DNA of 64,000 bases from an uncultured virus (IMG/VR IMGVR_UViG_3300021961_000029) (lineage: Duplodnaviria; Heunggongvirae; Uroviricota; Caudoviricetes): IMG/VR virus record IMGVR_UViG_3300021961_000029; one strand, given 5' to 3'. Below the pieces are notes generated by a model. That model saw only the letters and a list, made by a program, of their open reading frames with translations. It made no database searches and was not told where the DNA came from. Within the stretch, counting starts at the first letter, position 1. Every line of letters starts with the position of its first letter. Of this stretch, positions 3,611 through 27,531 are shown piece by piece. Both the position numbers and the translations under genes were made by a program.

Positions 3611-4007
3611 TGGTGGAGGTGGCGGGTTTCGAACCCGCGTCTTGCTCATCATACCATAAATGGACTACACGTTTATTTGGTTATTCACAACCAACAAATA
3701 TTTGATTTCATATACAGAAAAACAACAAACCTGTTCCTGACTATAATTTAAAGAGACAATCAGGCCATTCTCCTAACACTCTAAGTGGTATTACACTGTA
3801 AGGACTTCTGTTCCAAGGTTATGTGTCCATCGACCCGTTAGTTACTACCGATTAGGCAGCAACTTTAGAAGTTGCAAGAAGACCTGCTACTTCCATGTTG
3901 TTGTAAACGTTGCCGTTTGAATTTTTCCACCGTAGATTTAAGTCGTAGATGAAGTCCGACTACGTGCCCATTTAGAATATCAATGCCAATCAATTCCATA
4001 CACCCCC
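3611..4007 (-). ncRNA. ssrA: tmRNA (397 nt); tag reading frame 3914-3852 encodes GNVYNNMEVAGLLATSKVAA*
   Basis: 5' GGGGGTG pairs with 3' CACCTCC-ACCA including a G3-U wobble; T-arm GCGGGTTCGAAACCCGC; internal ORF ends AA-stop. Confidence 0.93.
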
Positions 4008-8414: not shown

Positions 8415-8445
8415 ATTACATATTATTCTAGTTATAAGTATTTTG

Positions 8446-8533
8446 CGGAAAGTGAGGGGCTCGAACCCTCGCGCCGATTACTCGACCTAACGGTTTAGCA
8501 AACCGTCCCCTTCACCAACTTGGGTAACTTTCC
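8446..8533 (-). tRNA. tRNA-Ser(GCT)
   Basis: acggt-TT GCT AA-accgt, long variable arm. Confidence 0.95.
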
Positions 8534-8571
8534 TCTCGACATATTGGTTTTTTTATGATTTAAAAATTTTG

Positions 8572-8642
8572 TTGTCCCGCAAGGATTCGAACCTCAATTC
8601 TCTGGACCAAAACCAGATGTGCTGCCGTTACACCACAGGACA
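8572..8642 (-). tRNA. tRNA-Gln(TTG)
   Basis: tctgg-TT TTG GT-ccaga. Confidence 0.95.
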
Positions 8643-8695
8643 ATAATAACAAATAGATTCTCACTAACCCGATTTAGTAGTCTCTATAATGATTG

Positions 8696-8767
8696 AGCGA
8701 ATAGCCGGAATCGAACCGACATCTCCTACTTGGAAGGAAGGAGTAATGACCATTATACGATATTCGC
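8696..8767 (-). tRNA. tRNA-Gly(TCC)
   Basis: loop CT TCC AA; GCGAATA/TATTCGC acceptor. Confidence 0.93.
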
Positions 8768-8836
8768 AAAAAGTAAACCCGGGCCCAACAAGCCGTTGTC
8801 GTACCAACGGAAGGGCCCTTTTTAAGGTTTACTTAG

Positions 8837-8909
8837 AGCGGAAAACGAGACTCGAACTCGCGACCCTCACCTTGGCAAGGTGATGCTCTACCAACTGAGC
8901 TATTTCCGC
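8837..8909 (-). tRNA. tRNA-Gly(GCC)
   Basis: tcacc-TT GCC AA-ggtga. Confidence 0.96.
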
Positions 8910-8972
8910 GGGAGTAGCCTTCCCATAACGGAGACTCATAGGTGAGTTTTGGAGTTAAGGGTACGACTACAT

Positions 8973-9344
8973 TTATTGTTGTTTTTCGTATGAAACAGAA
9001 TCTTTTGTGATTGGACCACCTTCAACCCATGTGTCACACCATTTTTTTCCTGAACACATAAAGTGGTGCATCCAACAATAACCAATTTCACCACTATTAT
9101 CACTCATACAATCTTTCATTCTTGATGAAATATCAAACGCAACACAATTTCCACAATTTTGATTTTTTTCTTTTGCTTCTTCAGTTGGTAATCCGTACTG
9201 ATGTGTCTTTTCGATTTTTTTCTTATTGGTGTCGTTAAGTTCAGTATCTTTTGTTGATTTGGGGCATTCCATCTCAGCTTCAGATAATAATCTTTTATTT
9301 AATCTTTCAATAAGTTGTTTTTTCTTTTTTAATTCAATTCCCAT
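8973..9344 (-). CDS. Cys-rich hypothetical protein (HiPIP-like Cys spacing)
   Basis: CGNC...GYC...C...WCDTW. Confidence 0.7.
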   Translation of the reverse strand: MGIELKKKKQLIERLNKRLLSEAEMECPKSTKDTELNDTNKKKIEKTHQYGLPTEEAKEKNQNCGNCVAFDISSRMKDCMSDNSGEIGYCWMHHFMCSGKKWCDTWVEGGPITKDSVSYEKQQ

Positions 9345-9371
9345 AGTTTTTTTATTATATAAATATCTCCG

Positions 9372-9445
9372 TGGTCCCTCACGGGCTTGAACCGTGGACC
9401 TACTGATTATGAGTCAGTTGCTCTAACCAACTGAGCTAAGGGACC
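9372..9445 (-). tRNA. tRNA with CAT anticodon, probably Ile2 (lysidine type)
   Basis: actga-CT CAT AA-tcagt; the GGTCCCTTAGCTCAG body resembles Ile2; identity is inferred. Confidence 0.85.
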
Positions 9446-9468
9446 GTATCGTTCAAATCGACGATAAT

Positions 9469-9545
9469 TGGTAGTGATGACGGGATTTGAACCCATAACC
9501 TTGACTGTATAAGAGTCCTGCTCTCACCAATTGAGCTACACCACT
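9469..9545 (-). tRNA. tRNA-Ile(TAT), CCA encoded
   Basis: gact-CT TAT AC-agtc; AGTGGTG/CATCACT acceptor. Confidence 0.88.
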
Positions 9546-10090
9546 GAATCTAATTGTAATTCGATGATTGTAAACATTGATTGTTCATCATCGTAAATTT
9601 TTATGTTTTCAGGTTCAATATTGTATGAACACATATCACAATCCCACAAAGCGAACCTTAAACCTTTTTTAAATTCATCCATGTTTTGAACATTTAATAA
9701 ACTCATGTAACACTCTAATGGATTTGGTAGGTATTTCCTCTCTAACATCTTATTGTGTTGATGGTACAACTCCCATTTTTCTTTATTACCATTTTCATCA
9801 ACACCATTCCATTCTCCACCGTGTGTTGTTGTTGAATACCATTCGGTATCCAATCTTTCATTTTCTAAAGTATCTTCTTCAGAAACTTCAATCACGGTAC
9901 GAGATTGTAACATATCTGTGGAAAGTGTTGGTAGATATCTGTGAACAATCTCCAAACCAACATAGTAACCAAGTTGATATTCAAGAGTTAATTTCTTTTT
10001 ACTCTCAACTCTTTCTTGTTTCCATTTCTCTTTCATTTCAGGTGTTATGTTTGATAACATCTCTGAAATTTTTTTACTTCTAGTTCCCAT
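9536..10090 (-). CDS. hypothetical protein (184 aa); start moved to MGTRSK
   Basis: the ORF-track start at 10180 lies inside tRNA-Tyr; ATG at 10090 has an A-rich leader. Confidence 0.75.
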   Translation of the reverse strand: MGTRSKKISEMLSNITPEMKEKWKQERVESKKKLTLEYQLGYYVGLEIVHRYLPTLSTDMLQSRTVIEVSEEDTLENERLDTEWYSTTTHGGEWNGVDENGNKEKWELYHQHNKMLERKYLPNPLECYMSLLNVQNMDEFKKGLRFALWDCDMCSYNIEPENIKIYDDEQSMFTIIELQLDSVV

Positions 10091-10103
10091 ATTAATATTT
10101 TTG

Positions 10104-10186
10104 TTGAAAGGGACGGATTCGAACCGCCGTACTCCAAAGAGAACAGATTTACAGTCTGTCGGTTTTAACCACTCACCCACCTTTCA
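10104..10186 (-). tRNA. tRNA-Tyr(GTA)
   Basis: acaga-CT GTA AA-tctgt, long variable arm, U1-A72. Confidence 0.93.
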
Positions 10187-10192
10187 ATTTTG

Positions 10193-10273
10193 TACCTCAG
10201 GTCGGACTCGAACCGACACGACTTTCGCCACTAGTTCCTAAGACTAGCGTGTCTACCATTCCACCACCAAGGC
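10193..10273 (-). tRNA. tRNA-Leu(TAG)
   Basis: ctagt-CT TAG GA-actag. Confidence 0.95.
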
Positions 10274-10349
10274 CTATTGTAGGATATCGCTTAACCTACG
10301 GTGTTGCTAGCATTGTACACCTTCGATGTTTCTATCAGCGATTTTTTTG

Positions 10350-10421
10350 CTCCCCGAGATGGATTCGAACCAACGACCACACGGTTAACAGCCGTGTGCT
10401 CTACCGCTGAGCTATCGAGGA
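10350..10421 (-). tRNA. tRNA-Asn(GTT)
   Basis: cacgg-CT GTT AA-ccgtg. Confidence 0.96.
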
Positions 10422-10426
10422 TTGTG

Positions 10427-10499
<73 letters not shown>

Positions 10500-10646
10500 A
10501 TAAAAAGATAGTGATGGAGTACCCATCTCGCTCCAATCTTAACGGCTTCTTCTGAGTTTTATCAGTGCACTGGCCGAGGGTGCTGAACACTATGAACCTT
10601 ACAACTACTTTGTCGACTTTCATTGTAAGAGTGACCACTATCTTAG

Positions 10647-10720
10647 TATCCCCGATTGGATTCGAACCAATGACCCACAGCTTAGAAGGCTGTTGCTCTA
10701 TCCAACTGAGCTACGGAGAC
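10647..10720 (-). tRNA. tRNA-Arg(TCT)
   Basis: acagc-CT TCT AA-gctgt. Confidence 0.96.
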
Positions 10721-10932
10721 AAAAAAAAGAAACAATCCTTCTACGCTCACCGTAGGTTTAGATTTTACCGATGGTTTGTTCCCCATCACCTGTTATGTGT
10801 GCACCATAGAGCAGGGTCCATTACAGAGTCTACTGAGCCGTGTCGTACCTTCCGATTGTGGTTGCGACCCACTTGGAAGTCAGTAGTCCTTTCAGTGAAG
10901 CATTATCACCTTCTGTAAGGATGTTTCTTTTG

Positions 10933-11017
10933 TACCGAGGATGGGAGTCGAACCCACACGAACATTACTGTCCAAGGGATTTTAAGTCCCTCATGTCTAC
11001 CATTCCATCACCTCGGC
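10933..11017 (-). tRNA. tRNA-Leu(TAA)
   Basis: aggga-CT TAA AA-tccct, long variable arm. Confidence 0.95.
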
Positions 11018-11023
11018 ATCTAC

Positions 11024-11046
11024 TTAAACCAATATGTCAAAGAACA
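11024..11046 (-). promoter_or_regulatory. boxA-like antitermination element, tRNA operon 1
   Basis: TGTTCTTTGACATATTGGTTTAA, identical to 14123-14145. Confidence 0.7.
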
Positions 11047-11077
11047 AATATAATCAAAATATAAGAGCGAAAATCTT

Positions 11078-11116
11078 AAAAAACAAAAAACCCGAACTTT
11101 TTTTGAGTTCGGGTTT
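11078..11116 (-). terminator. attenuator terminator of tRNA operon 1
   Basis: AAACCCGAACU/AGUUCGGGUUU stem followed by UUUGUUUUUU. Confidence 0.85.
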
Positions 11117-11142
11117 CACCTGTCTATAAGTTTTTTACTTTC

Positions 11143-11247
11143 TTACAACTTGTTTAACTCCGAACTTGGGCCACATAAATATATACCTCTCCCATTACCA
11201 CTAAGTGGATTGTTTGACGGTTGTTGTATGTATACCAAGTTCATCAT
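11143..11247 (-). CDS. leader peptide 1, MMNLVYIQQPSNNPLSGNGRGIYLCGPSSELNKL (34 aa; not in the ORF track)
   Basis: translated by hand; lies between the promoter and terminator; codons match the downstream tRNAs. Confidence 0.8.
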   Translation of the reverse strand: MMNLVYIQQPSNNPLSGNGRGIYLCGPSSELNKL

Positions 11248-11264
11248 TTCTTAAATAACTATTA

Positions 11265-11295
11265 CAAAGATACGAAAAGTTTTTTTATTTACAAG
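11265..11295 (-). promoter_or_regulatory. Bacteroidota-type promoter of tRNA operon 1
   Basis: CTTG-N19-TATCTTTG (-33/-7 layout). Confidence 0.7.
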
Positions 11296-11311
11296 TAATT
11301 TTAAAATTTTT

Positions 11312-11476
11312 TTATTTATTTTTTGATATGATTGACCACACACCACCAATTAATGTCATTGCAGCACCAATTAATTCATTAGATAAAACGTCTGTTGTTA
11401 ATCCTTTTGCTACTAATGCACCACCAATAAATGTTAATGTGTGTCTTACGATTCCTAGTATTTGTTCTTTTTGCAT
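11312..11476 (-). CDS. small two-TM holin-like protein, MQKEQILGIVRHTLTFIGGALVAKG...GGVWSIISKNK (54 aa; not in the ORF track)
   Basis: translated by hand; the RHxLTFxGG...WS pattern is recalled from putative phage holins. Confidence 0.7.
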   Translation of the reverse strand: MQKEQILGIVRHTLTFIGGALVAKGLTTDVLSNELIGAAMTLIGGVWSIISKNK

Positions 11477-11589
11477 AATTTTCTTTTGTTTGTTTTTATT
11501 TTTTATTATTACTTATAGATATTGTAATATAATAAAAAAAACATATTAATAAATTCCTTTAACAATAGGGTAACATAGGGTGTTATTTT

Positions 11590-11832
11590 TTAAAATAAAT
11601 CGTCACACCATATTGGTGTCTTCTCCCCAACATATGAACCTGACACATTAAAATCAAAGTATTCAACGGCTTCAGTCATATCCATTCCTTGTTTCATAAG
11701 GATTTCTATACACTTTTCAACAGAATAAATTAATCTCATTGAAGATTCGTCAATACCTATAACAGCATTATCAAATCCATCCGCGATTAAGATTTCTTCA
11801 CCTTCGTATTGTTCTAAAATTTTCTCTAACAT
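11590..11832 (-). CDS. conserved phage hypothetical protein
   Basis: ADGFDNAVIG...EAVEYFDFNVSGSYVGEKTP. Confidence 0.8.
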   Translation of the reverse strand: MLEKILEQYEGEEILIADGFDNAVIGIDESSMRLIYSVEKCIEILMKQGMDMTEAVEYFDFNVSGSYVGEKTPIWCDDLF

Positions 11833-11846
11833 ATTGGTTTTTTGTT

Positions 11847-11921
11847 TGGTAGCCCCTACGGGAATCGAACCCGTCTCTGGTCCGTGAAAGGGACCTGTCC
11901 TAACCGATAGACGAAAGGGCC
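11847..11921 (-). tRNA. tRNA-Glu(TTC), CCA encoded
   Basis: ggtcc-CT TTC AC-ggacc. Confidence 0.95.
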
Positions 11922-11929
11922 ATAATTTG

Positions 11930-12015
11930 CGGAGAGTGAGGGATTCGAACCCCCGTTACCTTTCGATAAAACGGTTTTCAAGACCGCCGCGTTCAACCAG
12001 CTCTGCCAACTCTCC
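11930..12015 (-). tRNA. tRNA-Ser(TGA)
   Basis: gcggt-CT TGA AA-accgt, long variable arm. Confidence 0.95.
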
Positions 12016-12306
12016 AATTTCCTTATCTGAGATTACAATAAGTAGATTTTAACGGGTTTCTCTCACTGTTTCGAGAACCATATCCCCCAACGCTCTCTGA
12101 ACATATTGCTTAAAAGTGTCCTCCATCATTGGGCCTTTCTCATTAGTGTCTTACCACATAAAAACCTGTCAACTCTATACGTCGGCGGTGCAGAGTCTTG
12201 CTACCGTTTTATCCGAATCGATACCTCATTAAGGTCGAGGATTTTTTTACCACCACTACTTTTTTAAAGAATGTAGCCAATCTTCCTGAGTATCTCTTAC
12301 CCATTG

Positions 12307-12378
12307 CGGTCCCACGGGGAATCGAACCCCGAACTCAGCCGTGACAGGGCTGCATTATAGCCGTTTAACTATGAGACC
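12307..12378 (-). tRNA. tRNA-Asp(GTC)
   Basis: cagcc-CT GTC AC-ggctg. Confidence 0.95.
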
Positions 12379-12475
12379 AATTTCGGTTTTATCCACATTA
12401 CCCTAACACATAGTGGACATGTGTTAGGTTTTGCTCAGGTAGGTTGTGACACCCTTTACACCGAAAACCCTGCAG

Positions 12476-12549
12476 AGCCTCCTGTCGGATTCGAACCAAC
12501 GACATCCTCATTACAAGTGAGGCGCTCTGGCCAACTGAGCTAAGGAGGC
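12476..12549 (-). tRNA. tRNA-Thr(TGT)
   Basis: cctca-CT TGT AA-tgagg. Confidence 0.95.
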
Positions 12550-12718
12550 GATAGTGGGTTGGAGTAGTCACGGCCAGCTCTGGTCCTTCCAACCCTTGAT
12601 ATAACCGTGGCAAAATCTGGCTCGACCCTAGTTATACCCATATTTTTATTTCAAAGAACAAACGAACAATTAAAATATAAACATGAAATTTCATATTTCA
12701 AAATATTCAATGAAAAAG

Positions 12719-12792
12719 TTGCGGGGGTGGGAATCGAACCCACGTCATTCAGCTTATGAGACTGAGCTGGAACCTCTCCAGTCCACCCCGCA
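12719..12792 (-). tRNA. tRNA-Met(CAT) with initiator-like acceptor
   Basis: TGCGGGG/CCCCGCA acceptor; loop CT CAT AA; lacks the three G-C anticodon-stem pairs. Confidence 0.85.
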
Positions 12793-12797
12793 ATGTT

Positions 12798-12874
12798 TGG
12801 TTGGAATAATAGGAATCGAACCTATAACCTTTCGCGTATCAGACGAATGCTCTAACCAATTGAGCTATATTCCA
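12798..12874 (-). tRNA. tRNA-Ile(GAT), CCA encoded
   Basis: ttcgt-CT GAT AC-gcgaa. Confidence 0.93.
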
Positions 12875-12880
12875 ATAAAG

Positions 12881-12955
12881 GGTAAATAATCGGATTCGAA
12901 CCGACGACCTTCTGAACCACAATCAGACGTTCTAACCAACTGAACTATATCTACC
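12881..12955 (-). tRNA. tRNA-His(GTG)
   Basis: tctga-TT GTG GT-tcaga; G-1:C73. Confidence 0.95.
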
Positions 12956-13011
12956 ATATTATAAGTTCTAGACCTAATAATCCCCCACTATTAGGTTCAG
13001 ACCTTATATTG

Positions 13012-13081
13012 AGGTCAATGTTGGAATCGAACCAACTCCGTTAGTTTTGCAGACTAACCGGCCTCCATGACCAAACTGACC
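13012..13081 (-). tRNA. tRNA-Cys(GCA), short D-arm
   Basis: ttagt-CT GCA AA-actaa; U73. Confidence 0.85.
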
Positions 13082-13087
13082 TTATTG

Positions 13088-13161
13088 TACTCTCGGAGAG
13101 ACTCGAACTCCCAACCCTTTCATCCGTAGTGAAATGTTCTAATCCATTGAACTACGAGAGT
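13088..13161 (-). tRNA. tRNA-Arg(ACG)
   Basis: tttca-CT ACG GA-tgaaa. Confidence 0.94.
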
Positions 13162-13166
13162 ATCAT

Positions 13167-13598
13167 TTATTTAATTCTTTCATTCCAATCATCTTCAGTA
13201 CCTAATCTAATCGGAACAAATAACGCAAACCCATCATCATCTTCAAAATGGTTACAGTCATCTTTCCTCCAACCAAATTTATATCTCATATGGTCAAATT
13301 TATTTGTTTCTTGATTCCATCTTGCAACATCTGTGTTTCGATGGTCACCAATATAAACTTGTCCGTGGATTAAATCTTTTTTGGGGATTGCACCCGCATC
13401 AATCAATCTTGGTACATAATACTCTTTCCATTCTTTTTCATTCACTCTTGGAAGGGTTGGTACGTCTTCAGGATTATTTAATTTGGGTATTCCGTTTTCC
13501 CAAAAATCTTTAATCCTTTGTTCTCTTTCCTCCTTTAGTTTCATTTTCTCAGCCTCAAATTTAATTTTTGCTGCTTCGATTCCCATTTGATTATTCAT
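13167..13598 (-). CDS. hypothetical protein embedded in tRNA operon 2
   Basis: 143-aa ORF filling the Trp-Arg gap. Confidence 0.8.
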   Translation of the reverse strand: MNNQMGIEAAKIKFEAEKMKLKEEREQRIKDFWENGIPKLNNPEDVPTLPRVNEKEWKEYYVPRLIDAGAIPKKDLIHGQVYIGDHRNTDVARWNQETNKFDHMRYKFGWRKDDCNHFEDDDGFALFVPIRLGTEDDWNERIK

Positions 13599-13673
13599 AG
13601 TTTTTAGTTTTATATGTTTTTAGATATAATTTTATTATGTACCGTTATTTTATATGTCTTTACATATAATTTG

Positions 13674-13744
13674 CACAGGTGGAGAGATTCGAACTCCCAA
13701 CAACGGTTTTGGAGACCGGTATGATACCCTTTCACCACACCTGT
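13674..13744 (-). tRNA. tRNA-Trp(CCA)
   Basis: cggt-CT CCA AA-accg. Confidence 0.92.
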
Positions 13745-13752
13745 GTATAATG

Positions 13753-13825
13753 TAGTTCCTGTCGGATTCGAACCAACGACCCTCTGCATGTAAGGCAGAT
13801 GCTCTACCAACTGAGCTAAGGAACT
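13753..13825 (-). tRNA. tRNA-Val(TAC)
   Basis: tctgc-CT TAC AT-gcaga. Confidence 0.95.
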
Positions 13826-13967
13826 AAGTCAAGGAAAGGAGAAGATGGTTCAGTGGACATCTCCTTTTACGATTGGCGTTACTTAGGTGAATACCTCCAA
13901 ACTCCGATTATATCAGTCAGTATTCACTCTCGAACTATAGACATAACCATTCCCCAATCAACCTTTG

Positions 13968-14041
13968 TGTCCCCGACGCGACTCGAACGCGTGACTCCCT
14001 CATTAAAAGTGAGGTGCTCTAACCAACTGAGCTACGAAGAC
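13968..14041 (-). tRNA. tRNA-Lys(TTT)
   Basis: cctca-CT TTT AA-tgagg. Confidence 0.95.
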
Positions 14042-14046
14042 AAGTG

Positions 14047-14119
14047 TGGTACCGACTGGATTTGAACCAGTGACACCCAGATTTTCAGTCTGGTGCTCTA
14101 CCTACTGAGCTACGGTACC
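14047..14119 (-). tRNA. tRNA-Phe(GAA)
   Basis: ccaga-CT GAA AA-tctgg. Confidence 0.96.
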
Positions 14120-14122
14120 AAA

Positions 14123-14145
14123 TTAAACCAATATGTCAAAGAACA
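14123..14145 (-). promoter_or_regulatory. boxA-like antitermination element, tRNA operon 2
   Basis: exact 23-nt copy of 11024-11046. Confidence 0.7.
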
Positions 14146-14151
14146 TCTTTG

Positions 14152-14221
14152 TGGACACTGTGGGAATCGAACCCAATCGTTCTGATTGCAAATCAGACGG
14201 TCTGCCGTTGACATCAGGCCC
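14152..14221 (-). tRNA. tRNA-Ala(TGC), atypical D-arm and acceptor
   Basis: tctga-TT TGC AA-tcaga; G3-U70 present. Confidence 0.8.
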
Positions 14222-14223
14222 AT

Positions 14224-14257
14224 AAAACAAAAAAACCTCGAGATTTCTCCCGAGGTT
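14224..14257 (-). terminator. attenuator terminator of tRNA operon 2
   Basis: AACCUCGGGA-GAAA-UCUCGAGGUU followed by UUUUUGUUUU. Confidence 0.85.
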
Positions 14258-14285
14258 CTTAAAGTATCGTTTTAAACTAAACAAC

Positions 14286-14375
14286 TCACAAGACACCTCG
14301 GGACATGCAAATATCAGCCACCTCTGCCCATTTTGAACAGATTGTAAACGACATTGTATGTGTTGAGCGTATCAT
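14286..14375 (-). CDS. leader peptide 2, MIRSTHTMSFTICSKWAEVADICMSRGVL (29 aa; not in the ORF track)
   Basis: translated by hand; lies between the promoter and terminator; codons match the downstream tRNAs. Confidence 0.8.
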   Translation of the reverse strand: MIRSTHTMSFTICSKWAEVADICMSRGVL

Positions 14376-14406
14376 CGAAAGTTTATTTAATTTTTAAAAT
14401 CTTTTA

Positions 14407-14438
14407 CAAAGATAACAATAAGTATTCGGAAAAACAAG
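14407..14438 (-). promoter_or_regulatory. Bacteroidota-type promoter of tRNA operon 2
   Basis: CTTG-N20-TATCTTTG. Confidence 0.7.
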
Positions 14439-14836: not shown

Positions 14837-15334
14837 GTGATGAAAAGATTACCCATCATATTACTATTATTTTTAATATCATTTGGATTTTCTAATCTAA
14901 ATGCTCAAACTATTGTTGTTGATACTGTTATCAATAACATTAAAATTGGTCCGTTTACTGAAAACAAAAATTTAGCTTTTGGTGTAAAAAACATCATTGA
15001 AGAAATCATAAACGAACAGGATAGTTTAATTCTGATTACAGATAAAAATAAAGCCGACTACAAAATTAAAGTTGAACTTATATTTTTTGACATTGTAACA
15101 ACTAACTCGGGGGTTAGTATTTTTCACGAAGATAAAACAACGACTGTGATAAGAATGAAAGGTGTTTTATACAAAGGTGATAAAAAAATTAAACAGGAAT
15201 TCTCGGAAGGTAAATCTACCGAAATTTCAACCTCAACTATTATGATTGATGAGGGTGGTAAATTCAATCAACAATCTGCTAGTTCGGCATTAAAGAAAAC
15301 AACTCAAACCCTAATAAACAAATTAATACTATGA
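14837..15334 (+). CDS. secreted protein, possibly CsgG/TolB_N-like fold
   Basis: signal peptide ending NLNAQ; alpha/beta pattern ending SALKK, like the 18095 protein. Confidence 0.6.
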   Translation: MMKRLPIILLLFLISFGFSNLNAQTIVVDTVINNIKIGPFTENKNLAFGVKNIIEEIINEQDSLILITDKNKADYKIKVELIFFDIVTTNSGVSIFHEDKTTTVIRMKGVLYKGDKKIKQEFSEGKSTEISTSTIMIDEGGKFNQQSASSALKKTTQTLINKLIL

Positions 15335-17244
15335 AAAAAATAACACTTTTCCTAATTACATTATTTCTCACGACAATGGCGTTTTCACAAACACCTCAAA
15401 TAGGTAATCCCGTTGCGTATAAAACTATCAAAAGAGGTGACACTTTAGATGTTGTGTTTAAATACACACCAGCATCTGCGGTTGACGTAAGAACATTCCA
15501 AGTTGATTTTCAGTATAGAAAACAACTTTTCACTCACGTATCAACTACTGTTGACCCAACTGTGAGTACTATGACTCCGGCTCTTTCGATAAAATTCTTT
15601 AGCAATTACAAATACTCAAGTTATAGTTCGGGTACAGGTTTGTATTCATATACGAGTGATACTAACTACACCGTAGCGAGAAATTTCTTGGTTCTTTCAA
15701 GTGGTTCTCAAATAACACAAGACACATTTTTAATACATAACAAATTTATTATTAATGATGTCGAATCAAACTTTGACGCCGATAGCGTTGAAATTAACTG
15801 GGCTAGAATGTTCAAATATGACGGTTCTACAATTGGTGATAACATCGCAATCTTGAATGTACAAGATATGCACCTTGAACTTTTAGGTAACTTGGTGATT
15901 AGTGGCGTTGTTGAATTACCACCAACAATGAAATTGGCTGGTAGAAGACCAACAGTTATATGTACAAAGTTTAATACAGGTACTTTTGTTTCATCGTCTT
16001 TATGTGATACCGCGGGTAACTATTCACTAAACAACGTAGACAAAAACACCAAATATAAATTATTGGTGAGATTCCCCGCTGACAGTATGGAAGTCTTTAG
16101 GGATTATGCTGTTACAATATCAGACGCGGTTAAGACTTACGATGAATATACTATTACAGATGTTAACCAAGGATTTGGTCAACAATATTTAAAAAATGGT
16201 TTAGCGTACCTTATTGGTGATATGAACCAAAACGGAAAATTAGACGGTGGTGACCCATATCTAATTTACGCTAACGTAAGTGGTATGAAAAAAATAGATA
16301 CTACAACAATGATTAGAACTTTCCACGCGAGTGTTTACGACTCTTTAGTTTTAGGTTCAACCCAATGGAACGATTGGCCAAACCATTTAACCGCAACCAA
16401 TTTTATCACGGATAGTGTTGGTTTAGTGAATAAAACGGTAAACATTAAATACTTTATTCAGGGTGACGTAGATAGAACATATTCATCAAGAGTATGGAAC
16501 TCATCAGGTGTATTAGTTGCTAAAGCGGTATTCAAAGGTAAATTAGATGTTGAGATACCTAACACTTCTGCAACAGGAAGTCAACCAATATATGTACCAT
16601 TTAATGTTAACACAAATGGTGATAACAATTATGGATTACAATTTGAAATGAAGTACGATAAAACTAAAGTTAAATTTGAAGAGATTGTATCAAATTTTAA
16701 TGGGGGTCCATGGTTACAATATGTAACTCACGACGCAACCAATGGTACAATTAGATTTGGTGGTATGAATAACCAATTCAAAAATGGTTTGATTGGTCAA
16801 GCAACCCCATTTAAATTAAAATTCTCACCAATTGGTAATAATGACATCGTAAGTAATATCTATGTCAGAGAGTTGATGGATGCGTCAGATGAAAGAGGAG
16901 ACCATTTAAACATTGATTTGGTTAGTAGTATTGCGGTTATTATGTACAAAATGGCCCCACCTACAGACCAATCAATTGATGAAATCACAGCATCAATTAG
17001 ACCAAACCCGACAAGTGGTTGGTTTGAAATTGAAATTAGGTTCCCAAATCCAAATATGGAGATGATTGGTTCAATTTATGACGTGAGAGGTCAATTGGTT
17101 AAAAACATCGGTTCTGTTTCAACCAATTCATCAGAAAAAATTGCATATAAGCAAATTGATATGACATCATCCGCAGCAGGTAATTATTATTTAGTATTAA
17201 ATAATTATAATAAACAATTAACTAAACAATTCATTAAAGTTTAA
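15331..17244 (+). CDS. secreted protein with cohesin-like and dockerin-like domains and a T9SS C-terminal sorting domain
   Basis: signal peptide; FQVDFQY and GLQFEMKYD cohesin-like motifs; GDMNQNGKLDGGD; RPNPT...IYDVRGQLV...GNYYLVL...KQFIKV. Confidence 0.8.
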   Translation: MKKITLFLITLFLTTMAFSQTPQIGNPVAYKTIKRGDTLDVVFKYTPASAVDVRTFQVDFQYRKQLFTHVSTTVDPTVSTMTPALSIKFFSNYKYSSYSSGTGLYSYTSDTNYTVARNFLVLSSGSQITQDTFLIHNKFIINDVESNFDADSVEINWARMFKYDGSTIGDNIAILNVQDMHLELLGNLVISGVVELPPTMKLAGRRPTVICTKFNTGTFVSSSLCDTAGNYSLNNVDKNTKYKLLVRFPADSMEVFRDYAVTISDAVKTYDEYTITDVNQGFGQQYLKNGLAYLIGDMNQNGKLDGGDPYLIYANVSGMKKIDTTTMIRTFHASVYDSLVLGSTQWNDWPNHLTATNFITDSVGLVNKTVNIKYFIQGDVDRTYSSRVWNSSGVLVAKAVFKGKLDVEIPNTSATGSQPIYVPFNVNTNGDNNYGLQFEMKYDKTKVKFEEIVSNFNGGPWLQYVTHDATNGTIRFGGMNNQFKNGLIGQATPFKLKFSPIGNNDIVSNIYVRELMDASDERGDHLNIDLVSSIAVIMYKMAPPTDQSIDEITASIRPNPTSGWFEIEIRFPNPNMEMIGSIYDVRGQLVKNIGSVSTNSSEKIAYKQIDMTSSAAGNYYLVLNNYNKQLTKQFIKV

Positions 17245-25512: not shown

Positions 25513-27531
25513 TTAGACCTTTTTTTTAAAAATTTTTATTTCACCATCTTTAAATTTTAAAGTTATGGTTTCATTTTCTTTGATGTCACCCTTTAAAATT
25601 GAATCACTCAAAAAGTCCTCACAGAGATTTTGAATGATTCTTTTAATTGGTCTTGCTCCATAATCTTCTTGAGTGTTGAGTTCTGAAATCCTTTCAATGA
25701 TTGTTTTATCAAATGAAATCTTGAAATTCTTATCCTTCAATCTCACAACTAATTTATTCAATTCAATTCCAATGATTTTTTTGATAACGTCTTTGTCCAA
25801 TGAATTGAAACTGATAATATCGTCAACCCTATTTAAAAACTCAGGATTAAAATGTTGCTTCAAAGATTTTTGTACAATGGATTTTTTAACTTCAAAATTT
25901 TGACTGTTAGACGATGAGGAATCAAATCCAACACCTTTACCAAACTCGGACACTTTTTTTGCACCGATGTTTGATGTCATAATCACAATTGTATTTGTAA
26001 AGTTAACCTTTCTACCAAATGAATCGGTTAAGTGACCCTCATCCAAGATTTGAAGTAAAATGTTAAACACATCTTTGTGTGCCTTCTCAACCTCATCAAA
26101 CAAAACAACTGAGAATGGATTGTTCTTTATTTTTTCGGTTAATTGTCCACCCTCATCATAACCAACATATCCCGGAGGAGAACCGATTAATTTTGCAACA
26201 TTGTGTTTTTCCATGTACTCACTCATATCTACACGCACAACTTTGTCGGGGTCTCCAAATAAAATTTCAGCGATTGATTTTGCTAAATATGTTTTACCAA
26301 CACCTGTTGACCCTAAGAAGATAAATGAACCAATAGGTTTATTTGTGTCTTTGATTCCAACTCTATTTCTTCTAATCGCTTTTGAAATGATTGAAATGGC
26401 GTCATCTTGTCCAATTACCTTTGATTTTAACTTCTCTTCTAAACTTAGTAAGTTTGATGTTTCTCTTTCATCAATCTTAGAAAGTGGGACACCTGTCATT
26501 TGTGAGATAATATCATAAACATCATCTACTGTTACTGGCGTCTTGTTATCCTTTTGTTTTTCCAACCATTTTTTCTTCTCTTCATCCAACCTACTCAATA
26601 TCTTTCTTTCCTCATCTCTCAATTTTGCCGCCTGTTCGTAGTTTTGACTTTTAACAACTTGTATTTTTCTTTCCTTTAATTCATCGGAATCTTTTTTAAG
26701 TTTTTCTAAAACTTCAGGAATTTTAGTGTTAATTTTTTTATCTGAACCAAGTTCGTCCATTACGTCAATCGCCTTATCAGGGAATTGTCTATCCGTAATA
26801 AATCTTGATGAGAGGTTAACGATTGTTTCAAATACATTCGGTTCATAAAATACCTTGTGGAAACTTTGGTACGAGTCTTTCAAATTATTTAAAATTTGTA
26901 CCGTTTCTTCTTTAGTTGGTTCTTTTAAAATTATTTTTTGAAACCTTCTAACTAACGCACCATCTTTTTCAATGTGTTTTTTAAATTCATCAAAAGTGGT
27001 TGCCCCAATACATTGAATTTCACCTCTTGCTAACGCGGGTTTCATGATATTCGCAGCATCCATTGAACCACTGGCATTACCCGCACCAACCATTGTATGT
27101 ATTTCATCAATGAAGACAATGACATTGGGTTCATTTTGTAATTCATTCAATATCGCTTTGATTCTTTCTTCAAATTGACCTCTATACTTGGTACCCGCAA
27201 CTAATGATGTTAAATCAAGTGATACGATTCTTTTATCTAAAAGATTCGACGGACAATCACCTTTAATGATTAGTTGTGCCAACTTTTCAACTAAAGCGGA
27301 TTTACCCACACCAGCATCACCAACTATTACAACATTGTTTTTCTTTTTACGAGATAAAATCTGAGCAATTCTCTTAACCTCACTATCTCTACCAATGACG
27401 GGGTCAATTTTACCTTCTTCAACCATTTTGTTTAAATCCCTTGAAAAATTATCAAGGATAGGGGTGGTAGAACCCTTTCTTGTCTTTTTAGGGTTGGAAA
27501 CATTTCCTTCTTCGAAAAAATCTACTGACAT
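25513..27531 (-). CDS. ClpC/ClpA-like AAA+ unfoldase lacking the N-terminal domain
   Basis: DPVIGR, GDAGVGKS, FIDEIH, FPDKAID, UVR-like YEQAAKLRD, GSTGVGKT, GSPPGYVG, GARP. Confidence 0.93.
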   Translation of the reverse strand: MSVDFFEEGNVSNPKKTRKGSTTPILDNFSRDLNKMVEEGKIDPVIGRDSEVKRIAQILSRKKKNNVVIVGDAGVGKSALVEKLAQLIIKGDCPSNLLDKRIVSLDLTSLVAGTKYRGQFEERIKAILNELQNEPNVIVFIDEIHTMVGAGNASGSMDAANIMKPALARGEIQCIGATTFDEFKKHIEKDGALVRRFQKIILKEPTKEETVQILNNLKDSYQSFHKVFYEPNVFETIVNLSSRFITDRQFPDKAIDVMDELGSDKKINTKIPEVLEKLKKDSDELKERKIQVVKSQNYEQAAKLRDEERKILSRLDEEKKKWLEKQKDNKTPVTVDDVYDIISQMTGVPLSKIDERETSNLLSLEEKLKSKVIGQDDAISIISKAIRRNRVGIKDTNKPIGSFIFLGSTGVGKTYLAKSIAEILFGDPDKVVRVDMSEYMEKHNVAKLIGSPPGYVGYDEGGQLTEKIKNNPFSVVLFDEVEKAHKDVFNILLQILDEGHLTDSFGRKVNFTNTIVIMTSNIGAKKVSEFGKGVGFDSSSSNSQNFEVKKSIVQKSLKQHFNPEFLNRVDDIISFNSLDKDVIKKIIGIELNKLVVRLKDKNFKISFDKTIIERISELNTQEDYGARPIKRIIQNLCEDFLSDSILKGDIKENETITLKFKDGEIKIFKKKV

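Follow-up and report, generated by a model that had tools for sequence, protein, structure and literature searches.

Little is known of how phages control the expression of their transfer RNA (tRNA) gene arrays, and the question is raised by a 64,000-nucleotide stretch of DNA from an uncultured virus (IMG/VR record IMGVR_UViG_3300021961_000029; hereafter 'the window', meaning the whole of the stretch that was analysed), in which 26 tRNA genes on the minus strand (8445-14221) possess codon boxes that together span all 61 sense codons. These genes fall into two sub-arrays that read 36 codons (set 2, 14 tRNAs) and 26 codons (set 1, 12 tRNAs), with ATG alone found in both, and each sub-array is preceded by a short open reading frame (ORF) and an intrinsic terminator. 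An earlier note on this DNA had proposed that one of these ORFs, the 29-codon 'leader 2', samples all of the tRNAs downstream of it and encodes the leader peptide of an attenuator. At the level of sequence, every prediction of that proposal that was examined is borne out, in the anatomy of the element, its codon match and frame-specificity, its conservation and its recurrence in other phages, and on this comparative and statistical support we place at roughly three in four the probability that leader 2 and its sister unit are paralogous attenuators of transcription, ribosome-mediated, that together gate a complete phage tRNA array.

The region upstream of the set-2 array (unit 2; Table 1) displays the arrangement by which attenuators are recognized, in that a small ORF follows a candidate promoter and precedes an intrinsic terminator, which in turn abuts the genes that would be regulated. 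The ORF and its codons are exactly as had been described (as judged both by a reading of the sequence and by the ORF list), and the promoter is suggested by a TTG trinucleotide and a -7 box of the TAnnTTTG type, a layout that recurs in unit 1 and in relatives and that corresponds to the -33/-7 promoter consensus of Bacteroidota. Only two exact copies of TATCTTTGTAA are present in the window (14414-14404 and 11272-11262), and each precedes a leader ORF; a scan of the window for sigma-70 promoters (36 sites, against 37.9 expected) was uninformative. The terminator of unit 2 consists of a stem of 10-13 base pairs, a GAAA loop and a T7-G-T4 tract, and the first tRNA begins 2 nucleotides later. The proposed 9-base-pair antiterminator also proved to be present, since TCCCGAGGT, located near the end of the ORF, is exactly complementary to ACCTCGGGA, the 5' arm of the GAAA-capped hairpin, and would form nine perfect pairs with it.

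The codon content of the ORF corresponds to the tRNAs that follow it. As had been claimed, 26 of the 29 codons of leader 2 belong to the 36 read by its 14 downstream tRNAs, the exceptions being ATA (codon 2), GGT (codon 27) and TTG (codon 29), so that codons 3-26 form an uninterrupted run of 24; all 13 non-Met classes are represented, as is Met. The chance estimate of 3e-6 that had accompanied this claim was too optimistic for leader 2 taken by itself: set-2 codons have a frequency of 0.60 in the phage's own usage (13,663 codons in 34 long ORFs), the corresponding binomial probability for the whole ORF (25 of 28 codons) is approximately 8e-4, and leader 2 ranks third among the 319 small ATG-initiated ORFs in the window. 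The joint evidence from the two leaders is far stronger than that original figure. Leader 1 ranks first among the same 319 ORFs (P approximately 1e-5), with 28 of its 34 codons among the 26 read by its 12 downstream tRNAs, and when the 24 non-Met tRNA classes were randomly dealt into groups of 13 and 11, none of 1,000,000 such partitions reached the observed total of 49 matching codons in 58 (mean 28.8, standard deviation 4.9, maximum 48).

This correspondence is specific to the reading frame, with only 14 of 28 and 11 of 27 codons in set in the alternative frames of leader 2, and 12 of 30 and 10 of 31 in those of leader 1. Leader 1 also represents all 11 of its non-Met classes; the simulated chance of full class coverage was 5.7e-5 for leader 2 (26 random codons, 13 classes) and 4.2e-3 for leader 1. 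For those amino acids that have tRNAs in both sets, leader 2 employs the TCN codons of Ser at 4 of 4 positions, the CGN codons of Arg at 2 of 2 and the ATY codons of Ile at 2 of 3, and leader 1 employs Arg AGA at 1 of 1, Ile ATA at 2 of 2 and Ser AGY at 2 of 4, such that across both leaders 13 codons are of the served kind and 3 are not. To judge from this pattern, codon choice tracks the isoacceptor and not the amino acid.

The mechanism envisaged for unit 2 would begin with a host-type promoter (-33 TTG, -7 TATCTTTG) that starts a transcript of approximately 175 nucleotides, carrying the 29-codon ORF and four competing RNA segments: regions 1, 2 (codons 25-29), 3 and 4. In the absence of a ribosome the 1:2 and 3:4 helices would form and transcription would end in the T tract that immediately precedes the first tRNA; a fast ribosome that has arrived at the stop codon would sit on region 2, and the 3:4 helix would again form and cause termination. 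A ribosome stalled at an early 'hungry' codon would instead occupy region 1 and leave region 2 free to pair with region 3 while region 4 has yet to be synthesized, such that the polymerase would continue, pass a boxA-like box that would load host Nus factors, and transcribe the array. Unit 2 would in this manner gauge the decoding speed of the codons served by its own tRNAs, which would be made on demand, and unit 1 would act likewise for the other 12 tRNAs. The translation of the ORF, the stall-dependent read-through, the loading of Nus factors and the nature of the trigger (host tRNA shortage or cleavage) are steps that we infer.

Folding calculations are consistent with such a scheme. The minimum free energy fold of leader 2 (-59.3 kcal/mol, z -6.5, with none of 200 shuffled sequences as stable) comprises an outer stem, an inner hairpin formed by codons 5-25, and the terminator. 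Forcing the 9-base-pair antiterminator costs approximately 9 kcal/mol (-49.2 versus -58.6), and the nascent RNA, when deprived of the 3' arm of the terminator, folds spontaneously in silico into the antiterminator. Leader 2 is, in these models, a classical 1:2, 2:3, 3:4 arrangement, and the 1:2 anti-antiterminator, which would be expected to bring about termination without translation, is present in silico in both units. Across 15 aligned leader-2 sequences, the proportion of cells that are paired is 97.9% for the terminator, 90.7% for the inner hairpin, 73% for the outer stem and 95.6% for the antiterminator, which in one lineage displays a compensatory change of C-G to U-A (TCC becoming TCT at a Ser codon, and G becoming A in the arm of the terminator). 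For leader 1, pairing amounts to 95.2% of cells in the 1:2 helix, where one compensatory pair is seen, and to 93.5% in the antiterminator, where covariation is nil.

The sister unit, which lies 3.1 kb downstream of unit 2 and is paralogous to it, follows the same plan, with a 1:2 helix formed by GAACTTGG and CCAAGTTC and a 2:3 antiterminator formed by AGTTCGG (within region 2) and CCGAACT. The earlier note had missed the control that this unit provides, as it had also missed the outer stem that serves as anti-antiterminator and the boxA-like box that is found beyond each terminator.

That box is a 22-mer that occurs twice, exactly, in the window (against 0.01 copies expected), with one copy beyond each of the two terminators. 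In phage contigs it lies 24-30 nucleotides before a tRNA, and in unit 2 it also follows the first tRNA. When a 17-mer of the same sequence was compared with one genome per prokaryote species, the matches listed were nearly all from Bacteroidota, and many of those listed lay on contigs of approximately 5 kb, the size of a ribosomal RNA (rRNA) operon; at 10 of 12 loci tested with Rfam the 17-mer was located in the 16S-23S spacer, on the rRNA strand (the remaining two loci being short contigs without rRNA). Its position in the spacer is after the spacer tRNAs and 80-200 nucleotides before the 23S rRNA. This distribution would fix the host phylum as Bacteroidota. The core of the 22-mer, GTTCTTTGACA / GUUCUUUGACA, matches the Escherichia coli boxA consensus UGCUCUUUAACA at 10 of 12 positions, as compared by eye, and also resembles the Bacillus subtilis boxA AUGAUCUUUGAAA; both consensus sequences appear in PMC13753749, which further describes the rrn antitermination complex as countering both Rho-dependent and intrinsic termination. 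The likeness to rrn boxA, a leader and spacer element acting through a Nus-factor complex, consists of the sequence of the core and of the exact 17-mer in the spacers, whereas the phage box is placed within tRNA arrays and downstream of an attenuator. The 22-mer would thus appear to be a host-type antitermination box situated beyond the decision point. A promoter function was considered for it and rejected, since the 24-30 nucleotides that separate it from a tRNA are too few for a -35/-10 or -33/-7 geometry, and since it follows a tRNA in unit 2 and occurs in Bacteroidota rRNA spacers. Its reverse complement was likewise rejected as a common gene start (4 matches versus 1.2 expected, both of the exact matches being copies of the 22-mer).

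Table 1. Positions, in the window, of the features of the two leader units and their tRNA arrays
Feature	Position	Strand	Basis or remark
-33-like TTG of the unit-2 promoter	14435-14437	-	20 nt upstream of the -7 box; sequence reading
-7 box TATCTTTG (TAnnTTTG type), unit 2	14407-14414	-	exact-match scan
Region 1 of unit 2: 5' strand of outer stem (5' untranslated region, start codon, codons 1-4)	14365-14393	-	pairs with 14299-14274
Leader ORF 2, MIRSTHTMSFTICSKWAEVADICMSRGVL, 29 codons + TGA; putative codon panel for 14 downstream tRNAs	14286-14375	-	ORF list
Inner hairpin across codons 5-25, in both conformers; possible pause hairpin	14303-14361	-	fold
Region 2 of unit 2: antiterminator strand TCCCGAGGT, codons 25-27	14295-14303	-	ends 6 nt before the stop codon
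Outer stem, 3' strand: codons 26-29, stop and 12 nt beyond	14274-14299	-	partner of region 1
Region 3 of unit 2: terminator 5' arm ACCTCGGGA	14248-14256	-	38 nt beyond region 2
Region 4 of unit 2: terminator 3' arm TCTCGAGGT	14235-14243	-	GAAA loop at 14247-14244
T tract T7-G-T4 of the intrinsic terminator, unit 2	14224-14235	-	sequence reading, terminator scan
tRNA-Ala(TGC)-like gene	14152-14221	-	between terminator and boxA-like box; Rfam 31.8 bits
boxA-like 22-mer GTTCTTTGACATATTGGTTTAA	14123-14144	-	exact-repeat scan
Set-2 array: Phe, Lys, Val, Trp, Arg(acg), Cys, His, Ile(gat), Met, Thr, Asp, Ser(tga), Glu; 143-aa ORF in a gap	11847-14119	-	ARAGORN, Rfam; ORF list for the 143-aa ORF
-7 box TATCTTTG of unit 1	11265-11272	-	exact-match scan
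Leader ORF 1, MMNLVYIQQPSNNPLSGNGRGIYLCGPSSELNKL, 34 codons + TAA; putative codon panel for 12 downstream tRNAs	11143-11247	-	ORF list
Region 2 of unit 1, CCAAGTTC	11160-11169	-	pairs with GAACTTGG (11242-11235)
CCGAACT, antiterminator partner in unit 1	11106-11112	-	pairs with AGTTCGG in region 2
Intrinsic terminator of unit 1, with a T6-G-T6 tract beyond it	11087-11117	-	just before tRNA-Leu(taa)
Second exact copy of the 22-mer	11024-11045	-	exact-repeat scan
Set-1 array: Leu(taa), Arg(tct), Pro, Asn, Leu(tag), Tyr, Ile(tat), Met, Gly(gcc), Gly(tcc), Gln, Ser(gct)	8445-11017	-	ARAGORN, Rfam

Related phages preserve both units. Two pattern scans of IMG/VR returned 14 and 23 loci with leader-2 homologues (together with 6 unrelated loci and 1 chance match), and in all five records that were searched for it a leader-1 homologue was found 2.5-3.7 kb downstream, with the order and partition of the tRNAs unchanged. 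The ATG, the open frame and the run of in-set codons are kept in 16 distinct leader-2 and 9 distinct leader-1 variants; in the 16 distinct leader-2 homologues the start codon, stop region and frame are all conserved, and every insertion or deletion is in frame. Among the variants of the two leaders, a 6-nucleotide insertion adds two Ile codons and a 3-nucleotide deletion drops one Gln codon, both likewise in frame. Among distinct amino-acid variants, with the decayed type described below (L044) excluded, 19 of 25 in leader 2 remain in set, versus 13.3 expected (P 0.017), as do 6 of 9 in leader 1, versus 3.1 expected (P 0.05); for the tail of leader 1, a part that overlaps region 2, the figure is only 2 of 15 variants. 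In one record (G012) a tRNA-Thr gene lies downstream of a leader-1 homologue that contains Thr codons, which leader 1 of the window lacks. A decayed leader-2 copy (L044/L046) has lost region 2 through a 27-nucleotide deletion between GAGGT repeats, and displays a terminator without a T tract, an altered promoter box and odd tRNA-like genes downstream.

The same architecture is also found around leaders that bear no detectable resemblance to either of the two in the window. Additional units were sought via relatives of the 80-amino-acid gene that neighbours unit 1 and via matches to the 16-mer that forms the core of the 22-mer; of 80 loci fetched among the matches listed by this second route, 29 had a tRNA on the same strand within 400 nucleotides. 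A detector that required a hairpin of -8 kcal/mol or lower followed by a T run, a tRNA within 400 nucleotides, and, as leader, the longest ATG-initiated ORF (15-50 codons) with its end shortly ahead of the hairpin identified 25 units in 24 stretches, of which 21 are mutually dissimilar (blastp-short, E 0.01), a set that represents a sample only. With four homologues (L086, L260-1027, L260-3808 and L210-2912) removed from the 25 units, the 21 dissimilar leaders contain 347 codons read by their own downstream tRNAs, and when the tRNA sets were permuted among the leaders, none of 200,000 permutations reached that value (263.9 +/- 14.9, maximum 329). A leader's own tRNA set ranks first of the 21 for 9 units and among the top three for 15, and the in-set codon share of the detected units is 0.56 in frame 0 versus 0.37 and 0.39 in the other frames. 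In structural terms, 16 of the 25 units possess an exact complement of at least 7 nucleotides to the terminator 5' arm near the stop codon, the full-length RNA folds to the terminator in 19, the nascent RNA of 20 units has the terminator 5' arm paired with an upstream segment, and in 14 a TAnnTTTG box lies upstream of the leader ATG.

Three of these units illustrate the diversity of the leaders and of the tRNA sets that they precede: L087, with the leader MKTMSIHMNSINWRRSS..., is followed by tRNAs for His, Trp, Ser(gct), Asn, Arg(acg) and Arg(tct); L146, with the leader MRTTGTTYQPKQYTQGGKP..., by tRNAs for Pro, Gln, Tyr, Thr, Gly and Lys; and L263, with the leader MKRANINIANNYPCNAGNPDYD..., which includes ...ANINIANNYPCNAGNPDYD..., by tRNAs for Pro, Asn, Asp, Ala and Tyr. 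In L257 a 32-codon leader precedes 20 tRNAs that read 29 of its 30 non-ATG codons; for this unit, as for L170, L258 and L259-425, the tRNA set is too large to be informative. In their codon composition, non-homologous leaders with the same architecture track their own, differing tRNA sets. On balance we lean towards the broader view that Bacteroidota phages possess widespread and so far undescribed sensors of decoding capacity, composed of a codon-panel leader, a terminator-antiterminator switch and a boxA-like box.

Several observations weigh against the interpretation of these units as attenuators of the tRNA arrays. Three of the detected units show no enrichment, with 9 of 16 in-set codons versus 11.1 expected in L190, 29 of 47 versus 33.5 in L215 and 1 of 42 versus 8.2 in L210-5723, and may be false detections. 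In the window itself, codons 21-26 of leader 2 are too close to region 2 for sensing, and the tRNA-Ala that is the first gene behind the leader is aberrant, as judged by ARAGORN and Rfam. Covariation is thin, amounting to one 2:3 pair in leader 2 and none in the 2:3 helix of leader 1; mismatches are found in the antiterminator (a central C.U in L037/L058 and an A.G in L060); and the substitution tests described above are modest. Leaders also lag changes in the arrays: in G006/L060 ARAGORN finds neither tRNA-Phe nor tRNA-Lys, and the Phe and Lys codons of the leader are kept, and a similar lag is seen in the L062 lineage described below. The remaining points of this kind bear upon specific alternatives and are discussed with them.

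The alternative that survives best, which we nonetheless regard as improbable, holds that the leaders are translated and the terminators functional, and that the main transcription of the tRNAs begins at other promoters (a second -7 box, or sites within the arrays), the leader units then being boosters, or stand-alone small genes whose terminated RNA or peptide acts elsewhere. A second TAnnTTTG-like box does lie between the terminator and the boxA-like box of unit 1 (within 11046-11086 of the window, minus strand), 20 nucleotides after a TTTG in the T tract, and was found in all relatives inspected. It may correspond to a basal promoter that overlaps the terminator tail, from which set 1 would also be transcribed without attenuation; tandem rrn promoters offer a parallel for such a second, basal promoter. 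The leaders also persist where arrays have shrunk: in the L062 lineage ARAGORN finds tRNAs for Leu(taa), Arg(tct), Met and Gly(gcc) only, and leader 1 still holds Asn, Gln, Pro and Tyr codons. That terminated attenuator RNAs and leader peptides can act in trans is reported in the rnTrpL and peTrpL papers. Against this alternative, however, the first tRNA of unit 2 begins so soon after the T tract that no promoter box intervenes, the 22-mer is boxA-like rather than a promoter, and the match between each leader and its downstream tRNA set would be left unexplained.

A less probable alternative still is that the switch reads general translation capacity (the supply of ribosomes or elongation factors, or coupling as in pyrBI), or operates with the opposite polarity. 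Each codon type occurs only 1-4 times per leader, and classical attenuators use runs of codons. The earlier note had suggested folding with and without a ribosome footprint as a check: in an equilibrium model with a masked ribosome, the antiterminator formed only for stalls at codons 3 and 6, and for a ribosome at codons 10, 13, 16, 20, 24, 27 or the stop codon the terminator formed, the vacated 5' strand re-pairing with region 2 in those seven positions. An opening of the antiterminator by early stalls alone would fit a sensor of initiation or coupling, and the failure of the equilibrium model beyond approximately codon 8 implies that sensing at codons 10-20 would need kinetic effects or a queued second ribosome. 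A general sensor, however, needs no particular codon content, whereas the codon content observed is split between the two leaders exactly as the tRNAs are split, and varies with the arrays among phages. As for polarity, region 2 ends 6 nucleotides before the stop codon, so that a terminating ribosome would cover it, as had been proposed, and the classical polarity is thereby fixed. The proposition that the units are structured non-coding leaders, or small RNAs with their own terminators, in which the ORF and its codons are accidental, would agree with the very stable fold, the conserved structure and the lack of a Shine-Dalgarno sequence visible on reading the sequence at leader ORF 2 (a signal that Bacteroidota commonly lack), but is very unlikely in view of the frame-specific codon match, the conserved start, stop and frame with in-frame indels, the recurrence of non-homologous ORFs with matched tRNA sets, and the finding that the only Rfam family detected in 14224-14414 and 11076-11272 was ARRPOF, at 17.8 bits versus a cut-off of 127.2 (E 0.33).

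If the two units are attenuators, as we consider probable, their closest counterparts are the attenuators that act through leader peptides in amino-acid operons (trp, his, leu, thr, ilvGMEDA and pheA), with which they share a small ORF between promoter and terminator, regulatory codons within that ORF, and mutually exclusive 1:2, 2:3 and 3:4 helices with region 2 beside the stop codon; the ilv and thr attenuators further provide a precedent for multivalent sensing. The differences are that (i) the genes regulated in those operons are enzymes and here would be tRNAs; (ii) the amino-acid leaders contain a run of codons for one or three amino acids, whereas the phage leaders contain up to 13-17 codon classes, each present once or a few times; (iii) the phage leaders display a choice of isoacceptor (Ser TCN or AGY, Arg CGN or AGR, Ile ATY or ATA); and (iv) the two groups share no sequence similarity, the Rfam covariance models of leader families (Trp_leader, His_leader, Leu_leader, Thr_leader and others) and of the T-box having no match at either unit, and PHROGs having no family for either leader peptide. 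The downstream genes being tRNAs, and not makers or chargers of a sensed amino acid, the units fall outside the classical attenuator families. In the pheST attenuator of E. coli, a leader with Phe codons precedes the genes of phenylalanyl-tRNA synthetase; it likewise acts on a part of the decoding machinery and not on the synthesis of an amino acid, but senses a single amino acid and regulates a synthetase rather than tRNAs. T-box riboswitches (RF00230) similarly report on the tRNA pool through a choice, made in a leader, between terminator and antiterminator, but they bind one uncharged tRNA directly, without a ribosome, and control synthetase and amino-acid genes in Bacillota, whereas the phage units contain a conserved ORF.

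The tRNA clusters of T4, T5 and other large phages are commonly viewed as compensating for codon usage or for lost host tRNAs. They resemble the present arrays in being groups of tRNA genes (here in a T4-like genome), and no leader-peptide control of them turned up in the literature searched; a related article on phage tRNA clusters is PMC10264068. More generally, no leader peptide or attenuator ahead of tRNA genes was found in the full-text literature, a search whose coverage excludes most subscription journals and which leaves absence unproven. What appears to be new in the units described here is the regulation of tRNAs as target genes, the composite codon panel, its resolution of isoacceptors and the boxA-like partner, whereas the machinery itself would be that of a classical attenuator.

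Were such units to function as decoding sensors, phage tRNAs would be switched on, one isoacceptor set after another, when the host pool fails the corresponding codons, whether through a mismatch in codon usage, the shut-off of host tRNA synthesis or the cleavage of host tRNAs by defence anticodon nucleases. Attenuation would then extend from the sensing of one amino acid to the simultaneous sensing, with isoacceptor resolution, of as many as 17 codon classes, and the expression of phage tRNAs would follow a demand-driven logic that bears both on codon compensation and on counter-defence against tRNA cleavage. The leader peptide would furthermore constitute a readable label of the membership and boundaries of a tRNA operon, and the unit as a whole a compact natural design for biosensors of the tRNA pool.

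The DNA of the window belongs to the genome of a T4-like phage, as indicated by Pfam matches to the T4 portal (E 1.8e-76), the Gp23 capsid (1.1e-75) and a T4-type large terminase, among family matches in 9 of 23 window proteins scanned, and has a G+C content of 28-41%. The nearest IMG/VR record (G001; 115,864 bp, rated 38% complete) is identical to it over the leader-2 element, and two relatives, G002 and G003, measure 310,691 and 288,260 bp and are rated 93% and 92% complete. In the GenBank phage collection no cultured carrier of the leader or of the box was found at the sensitivity used: the leader-2 region had no match (the tRNA part of the query alone matching 577 records), unit 1 had one chance match, and the 22-mer had chance-level matches only. 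Flavobacterium phage immuto, which on the basis of the capsid protein is the closest cultured relative (39.7% identity), contains zero copies of the 22-mer, even at 2 mismatches. A 637-amino-acid protein with a type-9-secretion C-terminal sorting domain (15331-17244, plus strand), taken together with the rRNA-spacer motif, indicates a Bacteroidota host.

ARAGORN identified 25 tRNAs in the window, all on the minus strand, from 14119 to 8445. The figure of 14 tRNAs downstream of leader 2, as given in the earlier note, includes a weak 26th, the tRNA-Ala with anticodon TGC, which Rfam recovers (the cut-off being 29 bits) and ARAGORN misses. Its acceptor and D arms are imperfect, and the same form is found in L002, L007 and L159; a canonical tRNA-Ala(tgc) occupies the corresponding site in G002, G004 and G005. 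Relatives L010 and L017 (G004 and G005), as well as L259, encode a tRNA with anticodon CTA (an amber reader, labelled 'Pyl' by ARAGORN), which in G004 and G005 lies directly after tRNA-Ala and before the boxA-like box, and TAG may be recoded in some of these phages. A 'freshwater-1' RNA (RF02979; 73.8 bits versus a cut-off of 72) was detected at 10763-10825, minus strand, where it separates the tRNA-Leu(taa) and tRNA-Arg(tct) genes of the set-1 array.

The 80-amino-acid protein mentioned above (phrog_13182; 11590-11832, minus strand) is encoded just before unit 1. Relatives of its gene occur in at least 160 IMG/VR stretches, a tRNA being present in only 19 of 80 loci fetched, and the gene is spread much more widely than tRNA arrays. 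Elsewhere in the window are found a phage-encoded transfer-messenger RNA (3611-4007, minus strand; Rfam 90.5 bits), followed by a terminator of its own (3607-3577), and a ClpB-like double AAA+ ATPase (AAA_2, E 1.4e-69; 25513-27531, minus strand). Finally, two tRNA-like elements with long inserts and a common T arm, TTCGAATCC, lie within a small array in L086 (2040-3130) and L087 (3440-4510), and one of them is labelled 'Asp(atc)' by ARAGORN at a relaxed threshold.

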